Source: an uncultured virus (IMG/VR IMGVR_UViG_2831345111_000005) (lineage: Duplodnaviria; Heunggongvirae; Uroviricota; Caudoviricetes). Taken from it: a stretch of DNA of 64,000 nucleotides. Shown here in pieces: positions 1 to 10,632 of the stretch. The stretch lies in IMG/VR virus record IMGVR_UViG_2831345111_000005; one strand, 5' to 3'. The stretch's first letter is position 1. Every line of letters begins with the position of its first letter. The notes beneath the pieces were generated by a model. It was not told the origin of the DNA and did no database searches. It saw only the letters and a list, made by a program, of their open reading frames with translations. The position numbers and the translations under genes are program-made.

Positions 1-1
1 C

Positions 2-1576
2 CTGGGTGACGTCGTTGACCGTGGGCCTCAATCCATTGAGACCTTGAAGTTCGTCCGCCAGGCTATAGCGGTTGGGCACTTGATGGTCGCAGGTAATCAT
101 GAGCGCAAATTGCTGCAGTTCTGGGATTCACTCCAGACTGGGGCACCTCGCGCAAATTCTCCATCTGCTGCTGAAACGGCCATGGAGTTCATGAAGCTGC
201 GTGAGGAAGAACAGCAGGCTTTGATTCAGTTTGTCCGAAACCTGCCTGGCTTCTACACTGTGACCGACGGGCCACTCCAGCTTGCGTTTGCGCATGCACC
301 GCAGACGGCTTTTCATCCTTTCACGATTCTGCATTCTGAATGCCTGTATGGCGGGAATGAGTTGCCGGATTATGGCGATGAGGACGCCGACGGGATGTAT
401 GCGGAGAGCTATCGCAGCGGCGAATCACGGCACATGCTTATCCATGGGCACATCCCGTTGACGAGTATGCATCATTGCGTGTTCTCACTGGACGCCCACC
501 AAGCGTTTGCCGGAAACATGCTGGCCTTGCGCCTGGATGGATTCTTGGCTGACTGTCGCGAAAAGATGGCTCAAGAGGCCTTCAATGACAATCTCGTTTC
601 CCAAAAGTGCGAGTTTGACTTCGACGTACACAGCGCCAAGTTTGAACTGAAGCGTTCGCTGGATAAGCTGAAGACCGCCAAGATGGTGACCGTGCAAACG
701 GAGCCGTCGGCCGGCCTATCGCTCTACAAGTATTCGAAGCGTGTGTTTTTCGATGCATTGTGGGGTGAGAGCCCTTATCTCCTGAAGGCTCGCGGTATCG
801 TGCTTGACCTGGCTGGAAACATTGTCGTGCATCCGTTCGACAAGGTGTTTAACTATGGTGAAAACGGTGCCGGTCTCGATATCGCAGACGACCATCCGGT
901 CTACGCGGTTGAGAAGATGAATGGCTTCCTAGGCTGCATCAGTCGCCATCCTTGGAAGAATGAACTGCTGGTGACGAGCTCCGGGTCATTCGACTCGCCG
1001 TTCGTTGACTACATCAAGTCGTTCATCACGCCGGCATTGAAGGGGCTGCTCCTCTCGTACTTCTCGCGCAACAACGTGACGCTCATGTTCGAGGTTCTGC
1101 ATCCGGAAGACCCGCACATCATCCAGTACCGGCCGCAAGACATGGGCCTTTGGTTGATTGGTGGGCGAGGTAAGGAGCAGGGCGCTGAGCCGATAACGGA
1201 AGATGAGTTGGACGAAATCGGGTTGATGTTGACCGTGAATCGTCCGGAGTGGTTCTACACGTCGTTCGGGCAGCTGAAGGAAAAGGTGGCCACCTCCCGA
1301 CTGGAAGGCTATATGGTTCGGGATGCGAAGTCACACAAGACGCTCTTGAAGTTCAAGACGCCTTATTACCTTGTGACCAAGTTCCTCGGCCGTATGAGCG
1401 ACACCAAGGTACGGCACATGTTCTGTCATCCTAAGGGATTCAAGAAGGACATCGATGAGGAGTTCTACCCGTTGGTCGACCACCTGGTCACCACAACCTC
1501 GGAGACTGACTTCTTGGCGCTGCCGGATACAGAACGTGTAGTCCTGGTGCGAGACGCAATTCAAGCACTGCGCTAA
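2..1576 (+). CDS. Metallophosphoesterase - T4 Rnl1-like RNA ligase fusion (Pnkp-like RNA repair enzyme), 5' truncated by window
   Basis: Frame is open from base 2: LGDVVDRG, GNHE and HGH calcineurin-like phosphoesterase motifs; C-terminal ARGIVLD, KVFNYGE, EKMNG (ligase motif I KxNG), FEV, EGYMV, KFK. Confidence 0.85.
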   Translation: MGDVVDRGPQSIETLKFVRQAIAVGHLMVAGNHERKLLQFWDSLQTGAPRANSPSAAETAMEFMKLREEEQQALIQFVRNLPGFYTVTDGPLQLAFAHAPQTAFHPFTILHSECLYGGNELPDYGDEDADGMYAESYRSGESRHMLIHGHIPLTSMHHCVFSLDAHQAFAGNMLALRLDGFLADCREKMAQEAFNDNLVSQKCEFDFDVHSAKFELKRSLDKLKTAKMVTVQTEPSAGLSLYKYSKRVFFDALWGESPYLLKARGIVLDLAGNIVVHPFDKVFNYGENGAGLDIADDHPVYAVEKMNGFLGCISRHPWKNELLVTSSGSFDSPFVDYIKSFITPALKGLLLSYFSRNNVTLMFEVLHPEDPHIIQYRPQDMGLWLIGGRGKEQGAEPITEDELDEIGLMLTVNRPEWFYTSFGQLKEKVATSRLEGYMVRDAKSHKTLLKFKTPYYLVTKFLGRMSDTKVRHMFCHPKGFKKDIDEEFYPLVDHLVTTTSETDFLALPDTERVVLVRDAIQALR

Positions 1577-1643
1577 GCAATAACGCTATACCCTCATGCC
1601 CCGCACATTTGTGTGGGGCGTTTTTCCATCCAAGGAGTACATC

Positions 1644-2316
1644 ATGAAATTAACGCTGGAGATTCGCGCCGCCGAGGGCGGTGAAGATGCCAAGCTCCTG
1701 GTTCATGACCAGGCAGCCATTTATCAACGCTATGCCGCACGTAACGGCATCAAGGCGTCTGTGGAGACACGGGGCCACCTTTGACCTGGTAACTCTCGAG
1801 GGACCAGCAGAAATTCTTGCCATCCTGCGCAATGAGGCCGGCGGCCATCGCTGGCAACGCGTACCTCCGACCGAACGCAAGGGCAGGATGCAAACCAGTA
1901 CCGTCACCGTTGCCGTAATGGAGGGTGAAAAATACGCTCCTTTACAGCTGAATGTGAACGATATCCAGGAGAGAGTAACAAAGGGGACTGGTCCAGGCGG
2001 GCAGAATCGAAACAAGCGATTAACCGCCATAATCCTCAAAGACCGCCTAACCGGTATCGAAGTAAAGGCTGAGGCCGAGCGCACACTTGAAGCAAACCGT
2101 CGAGTGGCCATGGCCACCTTGCGCGAGCGAGTCTTGGCTTATTACGCAGAGCGGGCGGCACAGGCCGAGAACAGTTTCCGCAAATCACAAGTTGGGACGG
2201 GCGCTCGGGGTGACAAGATACGCACTTATCGTGCGGACGGGGTGACTGACCATCGCACAGGAAAAAGAGCGGCATTGAGTTCAGTTGAAGCCGGCAAGCT
2301 TGACCTGTTGCTGTAA
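1644..2316 (+). CDS. Class I release factor homologue (RF1-type PxT motif, GGQ, lacks domain 1), made by predicted +1 frameshift at 1779-1785; about 223 aa
   Basis: AAGGAG RBS, ATG 1644. Frame 0: LEIRAAEGGEDA...RGHL-stop. +1 frame: DLVTLEG...EAGGHRWQRVPPTERKGRMQTSTVTVAV...GPGGQNRNK...GDKIRTY...VTDHR. The joined product is colinear with RF1 domains 2-4. Confidence 0.88.
1770..1785 (+). promoter_or_regulatory. prfB-type programmed +1 ribosomal frameshift site
   Basis: CGG GGC CAC CTT TGA C versus E. coli prfB AGG GGG TAT CTT TGA C; SD-like G-run at the same spacing. Confidence 0.85.
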
Positions 2317-2318
2317 AG

Positions 2319-2343
2319 AAAAAGCCCGCAATCGCGGGCTTTT
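2319..2343. terminator. Bidirectional intrinsic terminator
   Basis: AAAAA-GCCCGC-aatc-GCGGGC-TTTT between convergent genes. Confidence 0.75.
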
Positions 2344-2350
2344 GAGTGTG

Positions 2351-2707
2351 CTACCAAACTTCCTTCTTGCGTAATGGTGTTCCCACTGGGGCATACCCAT
2401 AAAACGGGTCAAACTGGCCTTCTTTTGACTTGAACCGCAACCGCTTTCGCACCATGACAGGAATCGCCATTTCAGCAGGAATGACGGCGCGAATAGACCC
2501 TGCAGAATTAACAAACTCTCTCCCTGGCTGGCTTCCGTATTTGTCATAAGTCACATAGGTGATATGCCAATAGTCGCCAGGTTGTGAAGGTTGGATACAA
2601 CTTAGCACTTCAAAGAAAACGTCGCCACAATGTGACGTCGTCTGAATGAAGTCACCCGGTTTCAAGCCAGGAGGGTAGTAGCCGTTGGAACGACTTAGCT
2701 CTAACAT
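2351..2707 (-). CDS. Hypothetical protein
   Basis: 118 aa ORF with GGAGG RBS, downstream of 2716-3501. Confidence 0.6.
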   Translation of the reverse strand: MLELSRSNGYYPPGLKPGDFIQTTSHCGDVFFEVLSCIQPSQPGDYWHITYVTYDKYGSQPGREFVNSAGSIRAVIPAEMAIPVMVRKRLRFKSKEGQFDPFYGYAPVGTPLRKKEVW

Positions 2708-2715
2708 GCTGCCTC

Positions 2716-3501
2716 CTAGGTGCCGTTGTGAATCAGAATGTAGCTGAGGTCGTTCTCGCGAGCATCTGCGAGGACCGGCACCAGCTTTTCCGGGATGTCC
2801 TTGTAAGTCCGGCTCATATTGAGCATGAACTCCCAGACACCCGCACCCTTGCCATTGTCACGGTGAGCATAGCTTGCGTTTTCCTGCACCCAGGCCCACT
2901 CAGGTGAAGCCTCCGGTTCAACGTCCTCACCGAGGATGTCGCTCATGGAGATGTCTCCAATCGTGGACTTGTTACCTGCGTTGAAGATGGGTTTTGTTTC
3001 AGGCGCTGCCAGTCCGGTCAATTCAAGTGCCTTGAGGGCCACTCGATTCCCGGTTGACGCCGCATTCCGCACAAAAGACAAGGCTGCCGCATCATCTGGA
3101 AAGCTATCTTCATCGTCATCACGCTGAAGGCTCAATACAACCTTGCCGTCGACGATAGTCTCGAACAAGTCCCAGCCATCGGCTTGCGCGGCCGCAGAAT
3201 CGGCAGTCGTCCAGCACAGTGTCTGCAGATACTCCAGCGCTTCCTCGATGGTTTCGTGATAGCGGCCTTCTCCAGACTCTGCGAGGTCAAACGGCACATC
3301 GCTGTGGTACTCAACCCCATCCCAACTCAACCCAAAGACCTGCCCATCCAGACGCTCAACGAGGGTGACCTCGCCTTCCCAGCCTAGCTCGTAGGCCAGG
3401 TAGTTATTGGTACCAGGCTCATAGGGATTCAGCTTGGGAATGCCGATGCCGCTTGCTTGTTTTGCGTTGTCGACGATGGTGTTCAATGCTGCGTTGCTCA
3501 T
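2716..3501 (-). CDS. Hypothetical acidic protein
   Basis: 261 aa ORF, AAGGAG RBS. Confidence 0.7.
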   Translation of the reverse strand: MSNAALNTIVDNAKQASGIGIPKLNPYEPGTNNYLAYELGWEGEVTLVERLDGQVFGLSWDGVEYHSDVPFDLAESGEGRYHETIEEALEYLQTLCWTTADSAAAQADGWDLFETIVDGKVVLSLQRDDDEDSFPDDAAALSFVRNAASTGNRVALKALELTGLAAPETKPIFNAGNKSTIGDISMSDILGEDVEPEASPEWAWVQENASYAHRDNGKGAGVWEFMLNMSRTYKDIPEKLVPVLADARENDLSYILIHNGT

Positions 3502-3602
3502 GATTTCTCCTTGGTTAATGTTTCCTAATTACTGCGTTGAAGTATAGGGAGCATCCTTCCTATACGAAGGAGTAGGAAAATCGACAATCAGGAGGAAAAA
3601 TC

Positions 3603-3785
3603 ATGCAAGCCGTAAGGACTACACTACCCCTTAAGGAGCAGTGCTGGAATCAAGTAAGAGCGGTCATTGAGACCGAAGGCCCAGGGACATCAGTGCAAAT
3701 CGAATATGAGCAGCTGGCTGCTTCTTATGGCGACGCCCCCAATGACCCGGTCTGGGAAGAATTTGCGCAAGCGCTTGCCCAGTAA
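3603..3785 (+). CDS. Small hypothetical protein
   Basis: 60 aa, strong AGGAGG RBS, followed by a hairpin terminator. Confidence 0.6.
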   Translation: MQAVRTTLPLKEQCWNQVRAVIETEGPGTSVQIEYEQLAASYGDAPNDPVWEEFAQALAQ

Positions 3786-3825
3786 CTCAAAACACCTCGG
3801 TTTTCCGGGGTGTTTGTTTATTTGG

Positions 3826-4518
3826 TTAAAAGAACCCGAGTTGCGTGGGCGCGCTTTCCAAGACCAGGCTGACCCCGCCGGCAACCTTGCGCATAATGGA
3901 TTCAGCGATTCTCGCTAGTCTTGGGTGTGAGCTGCAATGCTTCAATTCCTGCACCGCTATGCCGTAGCCAGAGAAGTCTTCCTGAGCGACGCCGTGATGC
4001 CCCATGGAAATGGATATCGTAGGGACGCCCGCATACCGGCTTCCAAGGCGCTCAATGCTCCGGCAGAAGTGCTCAGGGGTTGCAATCCCTTTCGCGAATA
4101 AGGCGCCTGTCTCGTGAGCCAAGGCGATGCGGACAAACACATCTGCCTGGTTCGCTTCGGCGAGACGCATGAATTTTACGATATCCGCTTCGTCACGGGC
4201 GATATTGGCACATTGGATTTCAACAGCCACCCTGGCGCCGGCGACTTCCTTATAGGCATCAGGAATATCGCCAGTCGCCAAAGGATGGCCGACTCGCCAG
4301 CCGTGCGCCTTGAGTTGGGCTGCGAAGAGGGCATTTAAAGCTGGGATGTTGCCAATGTGCTCAGGAAGCTTGGCATAGCCCGGCCACACTGGAAAGGGGA
4401 CTGAATCCACGATGGCGGATAGCTGCTGGAGAATTTCTGCCCGAGGATGCTTGGGGTCCAGCCCGAAGTCCCGAACTTCCAAAATTTGCATTGGATGGCC
4501 GCATGATTTAGAGGTCAT
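3826..4518 (-). CDS. BglII/BstYI-like PD-(D/E)xK-fold restriction endonuclease-like protein
   Basis: PD...VAVEIQ (E-x-Q variant typical of the BglII family), plus LNALF...GW. Confidence 0.5.
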   Translation of the reverse strand: MTSKSCGHPMQILEVRDFGLDPKHPRAEILQQLSAIVDSVPFPVWPGYAKLPEHIGNIPALNALFAAQLKAHGWRVGHPLATGDIPDAYKEVAGARVAVEIQCANIARDEADIVKFMRLAEANQADVFVRIALAHETGALFAKGIATPEHFCRSIERLGSRYAGVPTISISMGHHGVAQEDFSGYGIAVQELKHCSSHPRLARIAESIMRKVAGGVSLVLESAPTQLGFF

Positions 4519-4565
4519 CGTATAGCGTTAATTGATATTTTTTGTAACGAACTTGAAAGAAACAC

Positions 4566-5060
4566 ATGAATCACGACTTTATCGAGGCGCTTCTGCGGGA
4601 GACCCTCACTTTTGCCGACCAGCTGAAGGCTGCCTTGGCCGCTAACCAACCAATCCAGAAGCTCGAGCACACCTCATCCAGCACACACAAGCAGGTCCTT
4701 GTTCTACGCAAGGACCTGAAGATGCGACTTGGTAAATCAGTCGCCCAAGGTGCGCACGCCTCAATAGGCGCGCTGCTCGAGCGAGGGATACGCCTACCGT
4801 CAGCCATCATCATTCCGCTTGATGCCGACATCCGCCCCTGGCTGGACGGACGCTTCAAGAAAATCTGTGTCTCCACCCCGGACGAAGCCTCATTGCTTGA
4901 GCTCTATGCCCAGGCGCAAGCCGCAGGTCTGCCTGCTGCGCTTATTACCGATTCCGGGTTAACCGAATTCCATGGTGTGCCGACGCGCACCGCTTTATCA
5001 ATTGGCCCCGGCGATGCCGAGGCTGTCGACCGCATTACAGGGGGCTTACCGCTCCTCTAA
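4566..5060 (+). CDS. pth2: Peptidyl-tRNA hydrolase type 2
   Basis: KQVLVLRKDLKMRLGKSVAQGAHAS, KKIC, ITDSGLTEF, T.L.IGP...VD.ITG.LPLL. Confidence 0.92.
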   Translation: MNHDFIEALLRETLTFADQLKAALAANQPIQKLEHTSSSTHKQVLVLRKDLKMRLGKSVAQGAHASIGALLERGIRLPSAIIIPLDADIRPWLDGRFKKICVSTPDEASLLELYAQAQAAGLPAALITDSGLTEFHGVPTRTALSIGPGDAEAVDRITGGLPLL

Positions 5061-5116
5061 GTCGATGGCGTCCGGCGGGAAGGGGCTTGCTCCATCTCGC
5101 ACTGAAAGGACGCCTC

Positions 5117-5671
5117 ATGACTGCCATCCTCACGCTCGACCAAGCCGGCCAGCCTAACCGCTGGAGCACGCTTGAAGACGCGCTTTACTACCATCTCAAG
5201 GGACTTATCGCCTGGAGCCAGGGCGAGGACGAATATCACCTTCACGGTGGATACTCCAAGTCTGGACAACGCACCGTTGTTGCGCTCCCCTCCATCATCG
5301 CCGTTCGCAATATCGGCTTTGCCGGCCGGGTACCGCTCACGAATCAGAACCTGTTCTCTCGTGACGACAACATCTGCTGCTACTGTGGCCTGCGCTTCCC
5401 GCGAGGACAGCTCACGCGCGAGCACGTTATCCCGGTAGCACGCGGAGGCCCCAACACCTGGACCAACTGCGCAACCTGCTGCAAGCCGTGCAATAACGCC
5501 AAGGGCTGCATGCTGCCTGAAGAGGCTGGAGTGAAACTGCTGTACGTGCCGTATGCGCCAAATACAGCCGAATCTCTCATCCTGGCCGGCCGCAACATCA
5601 AGGCGGACCAGATGGAGTTCCTACGGGCCTGTCTGCCTCCTGATTCCAGGCTGCTTGGCAGGCTTAATTGA
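5117..5671 (+). CDS. HNH endonuclease
   Basis: LFSRD..ICCYCG...TREHVIP...GG..TWTNCATCCKPCNNAKG. Confidence 0.88.
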   Translation: MTAILTLDQAGQPNRWSTLEDALYYHLKGLIAWSQGEDEYHLHGGYSKSGQRTVVALPSIIAVRNIGFAGRVPLTNQNLFSRDDNICCYCGLRFPRGQLTREHVIPVARGGPNTWTNCATCCKPCNNAKGCMLPEEAGVKLLYVPYAPNTAESLILAGRNIKADQMEFLRACLPPDSRLLGRLN

Positions 5672-5709
5672 TAGAAAAACCCCGTCGAGAAATCGGCGGG
5701 GTTTGAGTG

Positions 5710-6330
5710 TTACAGCGTGTCTAAAATCTCGTCAAACTGCTTGTCGTAATCGCTAACAGCCGGCGAAATCAATGAAGCCAGTCCAATTAAGGCAATTGGC
5801 GTGCTGTCGAATAATGCATACTCATTTTTGAGCAACGCATAGAACTGCTGCAGATGCCCCTCGATTTCACTGGTGGATGACTCATAGAACATCTCGGCCA
5901 GTAAGGCGGAATCAGACTGCTCGAGGCGATTTCCCTGCATAGCCAGCATGCCGTTTATGCGACGGAGCGAAAACGCGAGGGTAGCTAGAAACTCCTGACG
6001 GTCACGAACGCTATCAGGCACCTCCGCTTCAATCAGCACATCAACCGAGCCTTTTTCTAGGCTCACCTCACCAAGCTTGAATTCAAGCGTCCCCTCGCTA
6101 GCTGATGTAGCCAGCTTGAGACTCGCGAGAATTCGGTCGACGACGTAAGCAAAGGCAAGGGGTTTATCCTTGATGCCTGACTGCTCAGGCGAACCGGCCA
6201 AAACAATTTTCCCCAGACCTTCAGTAAAAATCCCATCCAGATAACGGCGGATGCTACGCCCGCAATTCCCTGTCGCATGAGACAGCTCTTCAGCACGTTC
6301 AATCAGATTTTCCAAATTTGCATTCAGCAT
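5710..6330 (-). CDS. Hypothetical protein
   Basis: ORF with AAGGA RBS before ATG 6330. Confidence 0.65.
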   Translation of the reverse strand: MLNANLENLIERAEELSHATGNCGRSIRRYLDGIFTEGLGKIVLAGSPEQSGIKDKPLAFAYVVDRILASLKLATSASEGTLEFKLGEVSLEKGSVDVLIEAEVPDSVRDRQEFLATLAFSLRRINGMLAMQGNRLEQSDSALLAEMFYESSTSEIEGHLQQFYALLKNEYALFDSTPIALIGLASLISPAVSDYDKQFDEILDTL

Positions 6331-6452
6331 AATAGTTTCCTTAAAAATTAATAAAGACCACGATATGTATAGCTGCATTCCAGCCCGCTTCCCTTGACCC
6401 AACATGATATTTATGGTAGATTTACTATATCTCGGTTCAAAGGGGTAACCCC

Positions 6453-6707
6453 ATGTCTAACGTTAAACTTTCCCTGCAGTTCGCCCAAAAGCTGGAAACG
6501 GCTCACCTTGAACTGCTGAAAGCAGATACGCAGGATATTTACTGGGGAAGCCCGGCTGAAATTGAGGCTGGCAATATGGTTCACCAGCTTTGTATCGATA
6601 GCGGAATCGATATGGCGCAGGGTGAAGCCTATTGTATGAAGGCAACGCCTGAAGAAATCTGCGAATACAACCTGAAGCGTATTGCCGAGGCTTTGTCGGC
6701 CTTATAG
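6453..6707 (+). CDS. Hypothetical protein
   Basis: 84 aa, AAGGGG RBS. Confidence 0.6.
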   Translation: MSNVKLSLQFAQKLETAHLELLKADTQDIYWGSPAEIEAGNMVHQLCIDSGIDMAQGEAYCMKATPEEICEYNLKRIAEALSAL

Positions 6708-6806
6708 CCTCTTTTTTGTAGGGATTTCCCTATACTCACAATCTTCTTTATCGCCTGGCCTCCCCGGCCTGTTGAAATGTTCCGTGGGATTTAAGGTTCT
6801 CATCAA

Positions 6807-7733
6807 ATGAAACTACGTTTTGTCCTTCGCAAGGCGGCCACTATTGTGGCCTTGGCCCTTATTCCCTTTGCTGTCGGGGATGCAGCCACCTATCATCAGA
6901 TTCAATCGGTTGCCACAGCGAACTCGACCTGGCACAAATTCACCGTGGCCAGCGGGACTGCCGGGACCTGGCGGGCCCTCAGTTCTGGTGCTACAGCCTG
7001 TTTCTCGCGTAAGGTAGGCTTTACCGCAAATACGTCGTGGACTATTCCGGCCGACAACTGCGGAACAATCCGAATTAAGGCTTGGGGAGCAGGCGGTGCA
7101 GACTACAGTGCGGGTAATGTCTCTAAGTCTGGAGGTGGTGGTTTCGCCCAAGCAGACTATGGTGTAACGCCTGGGTCTACTGTCCTGGTTGCGGTTGGTG
7201 GCGGCGGGGGTGTTAACGTCGCCGGCACAAATGGCGGCGGCGGAGGTGTTGCAACCTTTTATGGCGGCGGTGGCTACTCGGGCGTTTTCCTTAACAATTC
7301 TGCTACACAGGCTAATGCCATTGTTATTGCAGGAGGAGGTGGTGCCTGCGCAACCTTATCCATATGTAATGCGGGCGCGGGGGGTGGTTCGTCTGGGCAA
7401 AATGGAAGCACCGCCGGAGGAGGCACCCAAACTGCCGGTGGAACAAACTATAACAGCGGTACAACTGGAAGTGCGCTGAAGGGCGGGGCAACGATTGCGT
7501 CAAATAATTCAGGCGGAGGCGGCGGATGGTTTGGAGGAGGTGCCACCGGTGCGTCGGGTGGAGGCTCTGGGCACGTGATATCTGGTGCAACGAATACCAT
7601 CCTGACGACGGGCAATGTTAATGTTGTCGCTAATGCCGCAGATGTCGACTACGTGGCGGGGAAAGGGAATGGCGCGAATATTTCCTCAGGAACGGCCTCA
7701 GGACAACCCGGCTATGTTGTCATCTATTATTAA
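6807..7733 (+). CDS. Secreted glycine-rich protein (adhesin/fibre-like)
   Basis: Signal-peptide-like N-terminus; WTIP...IKAWGAGG, GGGG repeats, C-terminal G.PGYVVIYY. Confidence 0.7.
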   Translation: MKLRFVLRKAATIVALALIPFAVGDAATYHQIQSVATANSTWHKFTVASGTAGTWRALSSGATACFSRKVGFTANTSWTIPADNCGTIRIKAWGAGGADYSAGNVSKSGGGGFAQADYGVTPGSTVLVAVGGGGGVNVAGTNGGGGGVATFYGGGGYSGVFLNNSATQANAIVIAGGGGACATLSICNAGAGGGSSGQNGSTAGGGTQTAGGTNYNSGTTGSALKGGATIASNNSGGGGGWFGGGATGASGGGSGHVISGATNTILTTGNVNVVANAADVDYVAGKGNGANISSGTASGQPGYVVIYY

Positions 7734-7734
7734 C

Positions 7735-7763
7735 TTGACATTAATAGGCAATTGAAGTATACT
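7735..7763 (+). promoter_or_regulatory. Near-consensus sigma70 promoter for the RNA operon
   Basis: TTGACA-17 bp-TATACT. Confidence 0.85.
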
Positions 7764-7764
7764 G

Positions 7765-7895
7765 TTTGAACAGTGGCGGCGTGGATGGACACGCAAAACG
7801 GCTAGACGCAGCGCATGCGCCCACAAGGAATTTCCATTGCGCTCGGGGTCTCCGTGCCCTGCACAGCTGGTGTCGAGCCCAGCCCTCTGTTCAAA
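7765..7895 (+). ncRNA. tRNA-like RNA with expanded anticodon arm
   Basis: Terminal stem TTTGAACAG/CTGTTCAAA; D-like arm GCGT-GGATGGAC-ACGC; T-like arm GCTGG-TGTCGAGC-CCAGC; long internal stem ACGG/CCGT, AGAC/GTCT, AGCGCA/TGCGCT. Confidence 0.6.
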
Positions 7896-7898
7896 TAT

Positions 7899-7974
7899 GG
7901 CCCCATAGCCAAGTGGTTAAGGCAGGGAACTTTAAATTCTCCATTCGAGGGTTCGAACCCCTCTGGGGCCACCA
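7899..7974 (+). tRNA. tRNA with anticodon TTA (ochre suppressor, tRNA-Sup), Gln-like D arm and variable loop
   Basis: 76 nt cloverleaf: acceptor GGCCCCA/TGGGGCC + A-CCA; D GCC-AAGTGGTTAA-GGC; anticodon stem GGGAA/TTCTC with loop CT-TTA-AA (7932-7934); T arm GAGGG-TTCGAAC-CCCTC. Confidence 0.92.
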
Positions 7975-7982
7975 GACAAACT

Positions 7983-8013
7983 AAAGCCCACCAATACTTC
8001 TGGTGGGCTTTTT
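7983..8013 (+). terminator. Intrinsic terminator of the RNA operon
   Basis: AAAGCCCACCA/TGGTGGGCTTT hairpin plus T run. Confidence 0.8.
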
Positions 8014-8553: not shown

Positions 8554-8754
8554 GTTAATTTGTAAATAACAGCACTATACTGAGAACTATGCCTCACTTG
8601 TAAATACATCTCGCGTTAGATTCCTTCGCTTCGGCGAGGAACTCTTTCCATGCCTGGAGCCTGCCTCCAGCTCGTGGTCCGCCATCCCATTCGATGAGCC
8701 TTTTGGCTCAGTTTGCGTCAGTACGACTTAACTTTTATCGAATGGAGATTTGCA

Positions 8755-9117
8755 ATGACCACCACTAACCTCAATACCACCATCCTGACCTCGGACGAGC
8801 GTCGCACGCTTACAGCCGCTTGGAGCGCTTTCCATGCCTCCGGGGAGGCGCGCGCAGAGGATTTCATTCTCTACGCCATCCTTCGAGGCAAGAACCCCAA
8901 GACTGGATTCACGCGCATCACCAACCCCAAGAAGCTGGCAAACGGTCTTCGTGAGTTTGGGGGCTACCAACATGCTCTTGACATGCTTGGCCGAGCCTAT
9001 AAGGGGCCGCTGACTCGCAAGCTTGCTCTATGTTTCCCTGGCCTTCGCGGTGAGCGCTTCAATGAGCTTCTGGATGCCATCTCGGCTGCCATCGAAGCAG
9101 CTCGAAAGGAGGCTTAA
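8755..9117 (+). CDS. Hypothetical protein, first gene of the Pth2-like operon
   Basis: GGAG RBS, 120 aa. Confidence 0.7.
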   Translation: MTTTNLNTTILTSDERRTLTAAWSAFHASGEARAEDFILYAILRGKNPKTGFTRITNPKKLANGLREFGGYQHALDMLGRAYKGPLTRKLALCFPGLRGERFNELLDAISAAIEAARKEA

Positions 9118-9118
9118 G

Positions 9119-9460
9119 ATGCATAAGCCCTACTCATACCTCATGGTGCGTGAAGACATCCCCCTCGAGCACCAGATGGTGCAGTTGGGCCATGCGGCCC
9201 TCGAGGCCGGCTTCAGCTTTAATCGCCCGGCCGAGACTTCCTACCTCATCCTCCTGGCGGCGAAGAACCAGGAGGAGCTGGTTCGCACGGCAGAGGAGCT
9301 CGCGGACCTTGGCATCGAGCATCACATGTTCTATGAGCCCGACTTCGGGCCCATGGGCCACTCTGCGCTGGCCACGAGGCCGCTCTTCGGAGATGAGCGT
9401 AAGCACATGCGGAAATATCGGCTGTACAAGGCAAAACAACCCATGATGGAGACCTGCTGA
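9119..9460 (+). CDS. Second, divergent Pth2-superfamily peptidyl-tRNA hydrolase-like protein
   Basis: YLMVREDI...QMVQLGHAALE...LILL...FYEPD...SALATRP. Confidence 0.65.
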   Translation: MHKPYSYLMVREDIPLEHQMVQLGHAALEAGFSFNRPAETSYLILLAAKNQEELVRTAEELADLGIEHHMFYEPDFGPMGHSALATRPLFGDERKHMRKYRLYKAKQPMMETC

Positions 9461-9959: not shown

Positions 9960-10095
9960 TAGCGCGTTCTCCATCCAAATTCTTCTCCTTGCGAAAAGTA
10001 TAGTTTTTTGATATACTATGATGCGTGGCTGCCATCAGCGGCCACTTATCTACATGGGCCTACCCGGCCCCCTAATTTTCTCTGGAGAAACAAGC

Positions 10096-10632
10096 ATGGC
10101 AGTAATTGACCGCGTTCTGGTGGGCGAAGCCCTGGTTATCGATATGCGAGTGGACAGCAATGAGCTGGACCTCTTGAACGTTGCACATATCGACCTCATC
10201 CTCGGCCCCCGTGGAAGCGCAGCAGAAGAAGCCTTCTGTCGCACCCTGACCGACCAGAAGCAAGGTGTGAACGGCCTCCTGGCTGTTGTTGCACCCAACC
10301 TCATGACCAAGCCGGCCACGGTCATGTTCAACAAGGTCACCATCAAGAACGGCAAGCAAGCTGTTCAGATGTTCGGCCCGGCCCAACGCGGTGTTTCGAT
10401 GGCGGTCATGGACTGTGTCGAAGAAGGTATCATCCCGGCCGCCGAGGCTGACGACATTTTCATTTGCGTGGGCGTGTTCATCGACCACAACGCTGACAAT
10501 GACGAGCGCATTCAGGACTGGAACTACCAGGCCACCAAGCAGGCAATCAAGAATGCGATTGCGCGCTTCCCGTCGGCTGAGCATGTTCTGGAAGAACGCA
10601 AGAAGGCGGCACACCCGTTCGCGGCGAAGTAA
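10096..10632 (+). CDS. fae: Formaldehyde-activating enzyme
   Basis: VGEALV...[18 protein letters not shown]...[29 protein letters not shown]...VGVFI...NYQATK. Confidence 0.92.

Follow-up and report, generated by a model that had tools for sequence, protein, structure and literature searches.

An ochre-suppressor-type tRNA gene with a PTH2-fold neighbour on a putative plasmid-like element

Described suppressor systems and the present locus

Why phages and other elements with the standard code carry suppressor tRNAs is a recognised puzzle: such tRNAs ought to be costly, and target genes have not been found. For the Xanthomonas phage XacN1, the passages dealing with this subject describe two CUA tRNAs in a standard-code genome with tRNAs for all 20 amino acids, and no target gene after in-silico readthrough (PMC5852040). 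In our study, a stretch of 64,000 nucleotides (in the following the window) was analysed, which is filed as the uncultured virus record IMGVR_UViG_2831345111_000005 and corresponds to C7:66213-130212 of a 3.69-Mb assembly of 32 contigs. ARAGORN called a single tRNA gene in the 64-kb window, designated 'tRNA-Stop', with the anticodon tta (Table 1). As in XacN1, a suppressor-anticodon tRNA is carried by a very large standard-code element with a full tRNA set, and no target was found. Unlike XacN1, the anticodon is UUA instead of CUA, the carrier appears to be plasmid-like, the tRNA stands alone 9.4 kb outside the tRNA array, and an orthologue as well as a linked protein partner are presented here. 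A homologue of this PTH2-like protein is encoded by XacN1, too (34.7% identity).

Suppressor tRNAs reportedly occur in stop-codon-recoded phages, as described in a preprint by Borges et al. Further passages on recoded phages mention such tRNAs, sometimes together with an element-encoded release factor (PMC13037316). In contrast to these phages, the matching stop TAA is the commonest stop of the element described here, and no in-frame use of TAA was found. Furthermore, the release factor homologue of the element is RF1-like and by homology reads UAA, so that it would not spare TAA. Laboratory E. coli ochre suppressors were derived from tRNA-Lys, tRNA-Gln and tRNA-Tyr. The UUA tRNA resembles them in its anticodon, U33, A37-A38, the class I body and A73, as in tRNA-Lys. 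It differs from them in being natural, conserved and borne by a mobile element, with a promoter-like site of its own and a body that is no host tRNA's (best host match 51/76 positions).

Units of clustered tRNA genes on mobile elements, accompanied by genes for RF1, Pth and tmRNA, are known from the parts of two studies that treat them (PMC5966550, PMC4758250), and GOLLD RNAs within tRNA arrays are likewise mentioned (PMC6582537). For the array units surveyed by Tran et al., defined by at least 20 tRNA genes at a density of at least 2 per kb, the corresponding passages report no suppressor tRNAs (PMC4758250). The element of our study agrees with the known units in its approximately 41 tRNA genes, HNH endonucleases, a GOLLD RNA with an embedded tRNA-like sequence, an RF-1 domain gene, PTH2 and tmRNA; here, unlike in those units, a suppressor accompanies the array.

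With moderate confidence, we regard the UUA tRNA as part of a functional and selected ochre-suppressor module, the other half of which would be P0003, a small protein of the PTH2 fold encoded shortly downstream.

The UUA tRNA, its orthologue and the PTH2-fold neighbour

A preceding sequence-only reading, made from the letters of the window, had proposed a 76-nt cloverleaf with encoded CCA and the anticodon TTA. This was borne out by ARAGORN, which had been suggested as a check, by the drawn cloverleaf and by Rfam (RF00005, 66.8 bits compared to a gathering score of 29, E 2.4e-12). The tRNA exhibits an acceptor stem of 7 bp (G1-C72 to A7-T66), a D stem of 3 bp plus A13/A22, an anticodon stem of 5 bp including one G-U, a variable loop of 5 nt, a T stem of 5 bp and A73 in front of the CCA. 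The anticodon loop is CTTTAAA (7 nt, U33, purine at position 37). A36-A37-A38 is the pattern expected of tRNAs reading U-starting codons, and the UUA tRNA has it.

The near-consensus promoter of the sequence-only reading, TTGACA-17-TATACT, is present with 11 of 12 consensus positions, but it ends 135 nt before the 5' end of the tRNA and does not adjoin it. Only one further match to TTGAC[AT]-N16-18-TA[TC]A[AC]T was detected within C7:44001-76000; it lies at C7:45636, just before the tRNA array, and consists of the same TTGACA-N17-TATACT as in front of the UUA tRNA. A 127-nt leader folded no better than shuffled sequences (minimum free energy -40.8 kcal/mol, shuffle mean -44.5, z +1.0). The terminator that had been ascribed to the gene was recovered as a hairpin (11-12 pairs) with a T run behind it.

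Table 1. Features around the UUA tRNA, with positions in the window
Feature	Position	Strand	Evidence or remark
Pnkp-like enzyme (kinase, metallophosphatase, Rnl1-type ligase), 3' part of a 737-aa gene	2..1576	+	gene start at C7:65575, before the window
RF1-like release factor without domain 1, putative +1 frameshift at CTT TGA C (1779-1785)	1644..2316	+	homology in the +1 frame
Canonical PTH2 peptidyl-tRNA hydrolase, 164 aa	4566..5060	+	PF01981 E 2.1e-28; TIGR00283 90.3 bits, cut-off 82
Sigma-70-type promoter-like site, TTGACA-17-TATACT	7735..7763	+	11/12 consensus positions
Leader from promoter-like site to tRNA, no recognised element	7764..7898	+	no Rfam match; unique in the genome
UUA tRNA (ochre-suppressor type), encoded CCA	7899..7974	+	ARAGORN, Rfam; syntenic orthologue L054:18110-18186
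Terminator-like hairpin, seen on both strands, T run on + strand	7983..8011	.	11-12 pairs, 6 G-C
134-aa ORF directly 5' of the PTH2-like gene	8713..9117	+	36% identity over 67 aa to the L054 ORF in the same position, pairwise E 4e-8; no Pfam hit
PTH2-fold protein P0003 (predicted fold), 113 aa, neighbour of the UUA tRNA	9119..9460	+	AAGGAGG before ATG; L054 homologue 57% identical

Relatives of the locus were collected by means of the RF1-like gene located near the start of the window. Its homologues, taken with 10-kb flanks, comprise 16 loci on viral contigs and 80 on metagenome contigs, which together with two more form the set L032-L129 (98 loci, 296 tRNA genes). A stop anticodon was found in only one of them, L054, and this again is tta. 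The L054 tRNA lies in surroundings syntenic to those of the UUA tRNA: an RF-like gene (62% identical) is located 7.5 kb upstream of it and a YqeY gene (60% identical) further upstream; homologues of the 134-aa ORF and of the 113-aa protein (57% identical) follow 1.0-1.3 kb downstream. The two tRNAs agree at 54 of 76 positions, including acceptor pairs 1-6, A73, the CCA and all seven bases of the anticodon loop. Pair 7-66 is A-T in one copy and G-C in the other, i.e. it has changed on both sides. The L054 gene is preceded by a promoter-like TTGCCA-17-TATATT with TG, ending 9 nt 5' of the tRNA. A private mutation, with other anticodons in homologues, was what the sequence-only reading had named as its refutation. 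As the orthologue retains TTA, the UUA tRNA is, judged by this comparison, not a private mutation, and an orthologue with kept anticodon loop and acceptor end but changed body is, at the level of sequence, evidence of selection.

The second half of the proposed module, P0003, is encoded 1.1 kb downstream of the tRNA. All 26 relatives obtained in a word-indexed protein search matched the PTH2 family PF01981 at E<=1 (best 1.2e-5). An AlphaFold (AF2) model from the family alignment reached a pLDDT of 87 and a pTM of 0.79. Twelve Foldseek matches reached E<=0.001; those listed (3erj, 1q7s, 1wn2, 2zv3, 1xty and 1rlk) were all archaeal Pth2-type proteins or Bit1, with TM values of 0.62-0.74, and 0.66-0.74 for the top ones. 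According to the model, P0003 has the PTH2 fold.

A profile search with the PTH2-like family yielded 982 cluster representatives at E<=1e-10. With the family alignment, 61 viral-contig loci were fetched including 5-kb flanks; their tRNAs were called by ARAGORN only. A suppressor-anticodon tRNA is located within 5 kb in 36 of these 61 loci (33 of 54 after collapsing identical genes), always on the strand of the PTH2-like gene. The anticodon is CTA in 34 of the linked loci, TTA in 2 and TCA in 1, one locus (L138) being counted under both CTA and TTA. In 32 of the 46 loci with any tRNA, the suppressor is the tRNA nearest to the PTH2-like gene, at less than 500 nt in 19 and less than 1500 nt in 29. 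Suppressors account for 42 of 179 tRNAs at PTH2-like loci compared to 1 of 296 in the control loci L032-L129. A Fisher test of 33/54 vs 1/98 gives p ~5e-18, a value to be read with loci that are not independent and a control that is a convenience set instead of a random sample. The linked suppressor tRNAs are diverse in sequence. At L138:5349-5495, a CTA tRNA is followed at once by a TTA tRNA, forming a tandem amber and ochre pair that starts 46 nt after the PTH2-like gene.

In the phage collection, P0003 matched 28 records of large phages (180-595 kb), seven of which were inspected. Phage ME3 carries an annotated 'anticodon CTA' tRNA 450 nt upstream of the PTH2-like gene, and in phage Arash ARAGORN called a CTA tRNA 1.0 kb downstream, which the record labels tRNA-Phe. 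No suppressor tRNA is present within 2.5-4 kb of the PTH2-like gene in GAP32, RsoM2USA, RAS14, Xoo-sp13 and LR756511. The PTH2-like domain of RAS14 (L196:3527-4312) and Xoo-sp13 (L197:3464-4306) forms the C-terminal part of longer annotated proteins of 261 and 280 aa. In Xoo-sp13 the gene is located two genes after a YqeY-type 'glutamyl-tRNA amidotransferase', in RAS14 near a valyl-tRNA synthetase gene. The plasmid collection contained no match to P0003. As queries against viral contigs, the canonical PTH2 and a glycine-rich neighbour were unproductive, and a 145-aa ORF used as a single query found nothing; success came with the family alignment alone.

A linkage between such tRNAs and PTH2 was not found described in the main texts of the open-access literature. 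Iyer et al. 2021, in the parts concerned with jumbo phages, take phage PTH2 as a rescue activity after tRNA cleavage (PMC7824862). The term 'suppressor tRNA' does not occur in the searched text of that paper, nor do 'peptidyl-tRNA hydrolase' or 'Pth2' in that of open-access phage-recoding and jumbo-phage papers on suppressor tRNAs.

Concerning the amino acid, the sequence-only reading had pointed to a resemblance to tRNA-Gln that does not extend to G1-C72 and A73, and had stated that the sequence cannot tell the charged residue; both statements agree with our results. The only DNA matches in 60 related genomes are five tRNA-Gln(UUG) genes, 76-80% identical over tRNA positions ~8-66. The core of the window tRNA is Gln-like (D arm, variable loop); the L054 orthologue lacks both the Gln-like D arm and the Gln-like variable loop. 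In E. coli, Gln identity at the acceptor end requires a weak 1-72 pair and G73. The UUA tRNA has G1-C72, C3-G70 and A73 instead. In a comparison with a pool of 431 tRNAs, Lys is the most frequent isotype among the 25 closest to the window copy (7/25); for the L054 copy, Lys, Arg and Phe tie at 6/25 each. The identities in this comparison are only ~51-54/76. By the identity rules of E. coli, U34, U35 and A73 favour LysRS. Because of these three positions LysRS is the most likely enzyme, and we infer a ranking of Lys first and Gln second. Mis-acylation of suppressor tRNAs with Lys or Gln, in a see-saw set by pair 31-39, is described in the relevant passages of Fukunaga et al. 2006 (PMC1483225); this pair is A-T in the window tRNA.

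The carrier element and its frameshift-dependent RF1-like gene

Taken as a plain ORF, the RF1-like gene of the window encodes 211 aa and matches the C-terminal half of RF1 only. RF-like homologues contain an in-frame TGA near codon 21, and a DNA alignment of close homologues shows CTTTGAC unchanged in all 7 sequences. Upstream of this motif, an ORF in another frame specifies the beginning of RF domain 2. If CTT-T is read in a single step, a product of 239 aa (1596-2316) would result, or of 223 aa from the likely start ATG at 1644, which follows AAGGAG. The frameshifted product aligns to residues 112-341 of E. coli RF1 (chain 2b3t_B), with a PPT (PxT-type motif) and GGQ present. With the frames joined, RF1 1zbt is matched over chain residues 125-352 at E 1.5e-37, compared to residues 175-352 at E 1.5e-30 before. 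Of 97 homologous loci, 55 have CTT TGA in register; in these, an open frame of at least 20 codons precedes the site, and the remainder of the gene follows in the +1 frame. GGAGG or GGGG is often found a few bases upstream of the site. Other RF-like homologues, e.g. the Variovorax gene mentioned below, consist of one uninterrupted frame. The view of the gene as a 211-aa C-terminal fragment was dropped once the frameshift was found, and a PrfH-like identity was rejected (PrfH model only E 1e-10, PDB 9mor 4.6e-9). To judge from these alignments, the gene is an RF1-type gene without domain 1 that uses the device of prfB, and its product would, by homology, read UAA and UAG. It shares with the prfB (RF2) frameshift, as portrayed in the relevant text of a prfB survey, CUU UGA C, a G-rich Shine-Dalgarno-like stretch a few bases upstream and the continuation in the +1 frame (PMC12421855). 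Unlike prfB, the gene is RF1-like, lacks domain 1 and carries the site inside domain 2. In the same text, prfA genes that require a frameshift are mentioned for only 34 genomes and are termed pseudogenes (PMC12421855).

The tRNA array extends over 18.4 kb (C7:46308-64681), with all genes on the + strand. Its approximately 41 genes cover all 20 amino acids, including genes for Lys(UUU), Gln(UUG) and Glu(UUC); 38 were called by ARAGORN with default settings, and relaxed settings add a Tyr(GUA), a second Met and an intron-like Gly call. The tRNA genes are interspersed with small ORFs and genes for glycine-rich proteins and HNH endonucleases. The UUA tRNA at C7:74111 lies 9.4 kb past this dense array. 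A role as a stand-in for a tRNA-Tyr absent from the array was ruled out by the low-scoring Tyr(GUA) at C7:46496-46584. Between the array and the UUA tRNA, we found genes for a YqeY-domain protein, the Pnkp-like enzyme, the RF-1-domain protein, the canonical PTH2 and an HNH endonuclease. Within the array, at C7:57354-57817 (L011:3354-3817, + strand), a GOLLD RNA was detected (RF02032, 174.8 bits, cut-off 150), which embeds a tRNA-like sequence with a 4-base 'tgat' anticodon according to ARAGORN; the closest viral relative, L032, retains this region. A second tmRNA of the permuted two-piece beta-type is encoded on the element at C7:20614-20995 (L009:2614-2995, - strand; tag ANDESYRLVA; RF01850 89.4 bits, RF04321 95.3 bits). 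The ordinary tmRNA of the host, with the tag ANDETYALAA, is found on contig C13. A gene for a formaldehyde-activating enzyme (Fae) 2 kb past the proposed suppressor module (window 10018-10632, + strand, E 3.5e-65) looks like a metabolic passenger gene.

Contig C7 encodes TrfA, an actin-like (ParM-like) partition protein, a type IV coupling protein and TraG_N, and furthermore topoisomerases, DNA polymerases, ribonucleotide reductase, a CCA-adding enzyme and further RNA ligases. C8 carries ParAB and a Rep3 initiator. C7, C8 and C10 have a G+C content of 52-54% compared to ~56-57%, and have TAA-rich, TGA-poor stops in common; judged by these features, they are probably one or more megaplasmids of together ~410 kb. 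PHROG families for capsid, terminase, portal or tail sheath were absent among the ORFs scanned on these contigs, namely 93 ORFs of C7:1-130 kb without informative Pfam hit (E<=1e-5) and 217 ORFs of at least 150 aa from the rest of C7, C8 and C10 (E<=1e-20 or 1e-25). Two glycine-rich proteins match tail-fibre families by their repeats. With no such family in the ORFs scanned, a phage origin is not supported, and we read the carrier as plasmid-like, with a size between 225 kb and ~410 kb and with replication and nucleotide genes that resemble those of phages. The Variovorax plasmids of ~800 kb are distantly related to it; they share the Pnkp-like protein (41% identity), the RF-like protein (46-47%), the HNH gene and a 43-gene tRNA array; a suppressor tRNA is absent from these plasmids. 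The Pnkp-like protein as query against genome contigs retrieved one distant locus without tRNAs. DNA searches with the tRNA region and window positions 1-8000 against phage and plasmid collections gave no match.

Possible functions of the tRNA and their meaning

The tRNA array just upstream of the window, the linked PTH2-fold gene and the frameshift-dependent RF1-like gene, none of which was accessible to the sequence-only reading, favour a working suppression module that is tolerated or regulated by the element. In such a module, we infer that the tRNA would be transcribed from its own sigma-70-type promoter and trimmed at the 5' end, the CCA being already encoded. A host synthetase, most likely LysRS and otherwise GlnRS, would charge it, and the charged tRNA may then compete with both release factors, RF1 and RF2, for UAA codons and weakly for UAG codons, leading to low-level readthrough. 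The PTH2-like partner would cleave the ester bond of peptidyl- or aminoacyl-tRNA. It might thereby make the suppressor tolerable by removing what readthrough and stalling leave behind, or else set the charged fraction of the suppressor.

Several results weigh against such a module. A single UUA orthologue turned up, and this L054 tRNA departs further from the canonical form, with a mismatch at C31/C39, a T loop of 8 nt and a score of 50.5 bits. No tRNA is present within 10 kb in L050 and L055, where the RF-like genes are 69% and 62% identical; in L032, the contig end falls at the RF-like gene. P0003 itself reaches only 17.8 bits against PF01981 (E 0.004), below the gathering cut-off of 23 bits. 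No suppressor is found within 5 kb of 21 of the 54 distinct PTH2-like genes, nor near the four viral homologues closest to P0003 (L131-L134, 50-56% identical). Furthermore, an efficient suppressor would harm the element itself, as this is mostly TAA-terminated (57%), and read-through tests with Pfam and tblastn detected no target gene.

Ordinary use of TAA as a stop had been noted in the sequence-only reading, and it holds beyond the window: on C7, TAA is the commonest stop and terminates 122 of the 204 ORFs with 100 aa or more, and on C7, C8 and C10 together it terminates 230 of 403 ORFs, compared to 1160 of 2749 elsewhere in the genome. For TGA, the values are 84 of 403 and 1049 of 2749. By this usage, the element is not one that is recoded to read TAA as sense, in agreement with the earlier statement that simple recoding does not apply; the proposed check for in-frame TAA in element genes found neither a domain nor a homologue spanning TAA. 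A related idea, corresponding to the conditional readthrough of the sequence-only reading, is that the tRNA serves programmed readthrough or recoding of only one or a few element genes with in-frame TAA. The same region does have a gene recoded at a stop codon, the RF1-like gene with its CUU UGA C, and a single target could escape homology tests, which have low power here because most element genes are ORFans. We nevertheless consider a dedicated target unlikely. Past TAA, the reading frames do not stay open longer than past TAG or TGA (at least 40 codons in 52/230, 17/89 and 25/84 ORFs, respectively), and the +4 base and tandem stops following TAA are unremarkable, showing no adaptation. No Pfam domain extends across TAA in 51 of the 52 TAA-ended products concerned (TAA translated as Q; the one omitted ORF overlaps the GOLLD RNA), and in tblastn of all 52 products against 1.10 Mb of related loci, junction-spanning matches were restricted to this spurious GOLLD-overlapping ORF. 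At C8:62154-65027 (L021:8154-11027, + strand), about five paralogues of ~184-204 aa are arranged in tandem in one reading frame. The copies are separated by stops, three of which are TAA with the next ATG only 1-2 codons away, and TAA readthrough would therefore fuse neighbours; since a single ancestral in-frame duplication would explain this arrangement, it was not counted as evidence.

The RNA might also not act in elongation but serve, as the sequence-only reading had considered, as a decoy or bait for anticodon nucleases or as an uncharged ligand; this would be within an anti-ribotoxin island. The neighbourhood would suit tRNA damage and ribosome rescue (Pnkp-like enzyme, RNA ligase, CCA-adding enzyme, PTH2, tmRNA, RF-like gene and full tRNA array), as would the rescue role given to phage PTH2 in the passages of Iyer et al. 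2021 (PMC7824862). However, a decoy for nucleases cutting tRNA-Lys, -Gln or -Glu should keep a sense anticodon; the array already provides Lys(UUU), Gln(UUG) and Glu(UUC), and UUA has no clear advantage over its tRNA-Lys(UUU). Both the CCA present in the gene and the kept acceptor stem with A73 point to charging. Moreover, the linked tRNAs elsewhere carry CUA, UUA or UCA, and all three stop anticodons point to stop codons and not to the target of one nuclease, so that we regard a decoy as rather improbable. Little credence is given to a neutral by-product, i.e. a redundant tRNA of the mobile element the anticodon of which drifted to UUA, with little or no activity. Array tRNAs are redundant and often odd, such as the 'tgat' tRNA-like sequence and low-scoring members, and no close relatives of the UUA tRNA turned up in pattern scans of metagenome contigs, of viral contigs (two scans) and of 400 other genomes of the order. 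Drift agrees poorly with a loop and acceptor stem kept in an orthologue whose neighbours are 57-62% identical, with the two-sided change at 7-66, with 66.8 bits placing the tRNA among the better-scoring ones of the contig, with a promoter-like site of its own in both the window and L054, and with the linkage of the PTH2-like family to suppressor tRNAs. Equally small is the weight we give to the suppressor as a weapon, which would weaken UAA termination to handicap competing phages or the host, with the RF1-like factor, the tmRNA and the PTH2 enzymes shielding the element. An extra RF1-type factor, a second tmRNA and two PTH2-type genes on one element fit this proposal, as do the few TGA stops (21% vs 38% in the rest of the genome). 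The proposal is, however, purely inferential; selectivity is left unexplained, as one tRNA pool is common to all mRNAs in the cell, and just 1 of the 98 RF1-like loci has a suppressor tRNA.

The suppressor module of tRNA and PTH2-fold protein therefore remains the reading we prefer. In a wider and clearly more tentative form, suppressor tRNA and small PTH2-fold protein could form a two-gene module that is widespread among giant phages and megaplasmids and serves controlled stop-codon readthrough in standard-code hosts, mostly at UAG, here at UAA and rarely at UGA. The PTH2-like protein would be a specific partner of the suppressor, for example as a gatekeeping deacylase or as a cleaner of its peptidyl-tRNA, and in the present element a frameshift-controlled RF1 without domain 1 would join the module in re-tuning termination. 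That the RF1-like gene depends on a frameshift suggests that such elements monitor their termination capacity and adjust it. New compared to the known suppressor tRNAs of standard-code elements are the evidence for selection from the orthologue, a plasmid-like instead of a phage carrier and the linked PTH2-fold family. Overall, the comparisons indicate a UUA tRNA kept by evolution next to a member of a PTH2-like gene family that accompanies suppressors in many giant phages. This linkage makes the question why such tRNAs exist testable on a tRNA-protein pair, also in the cultured phages ME3 and Arash.

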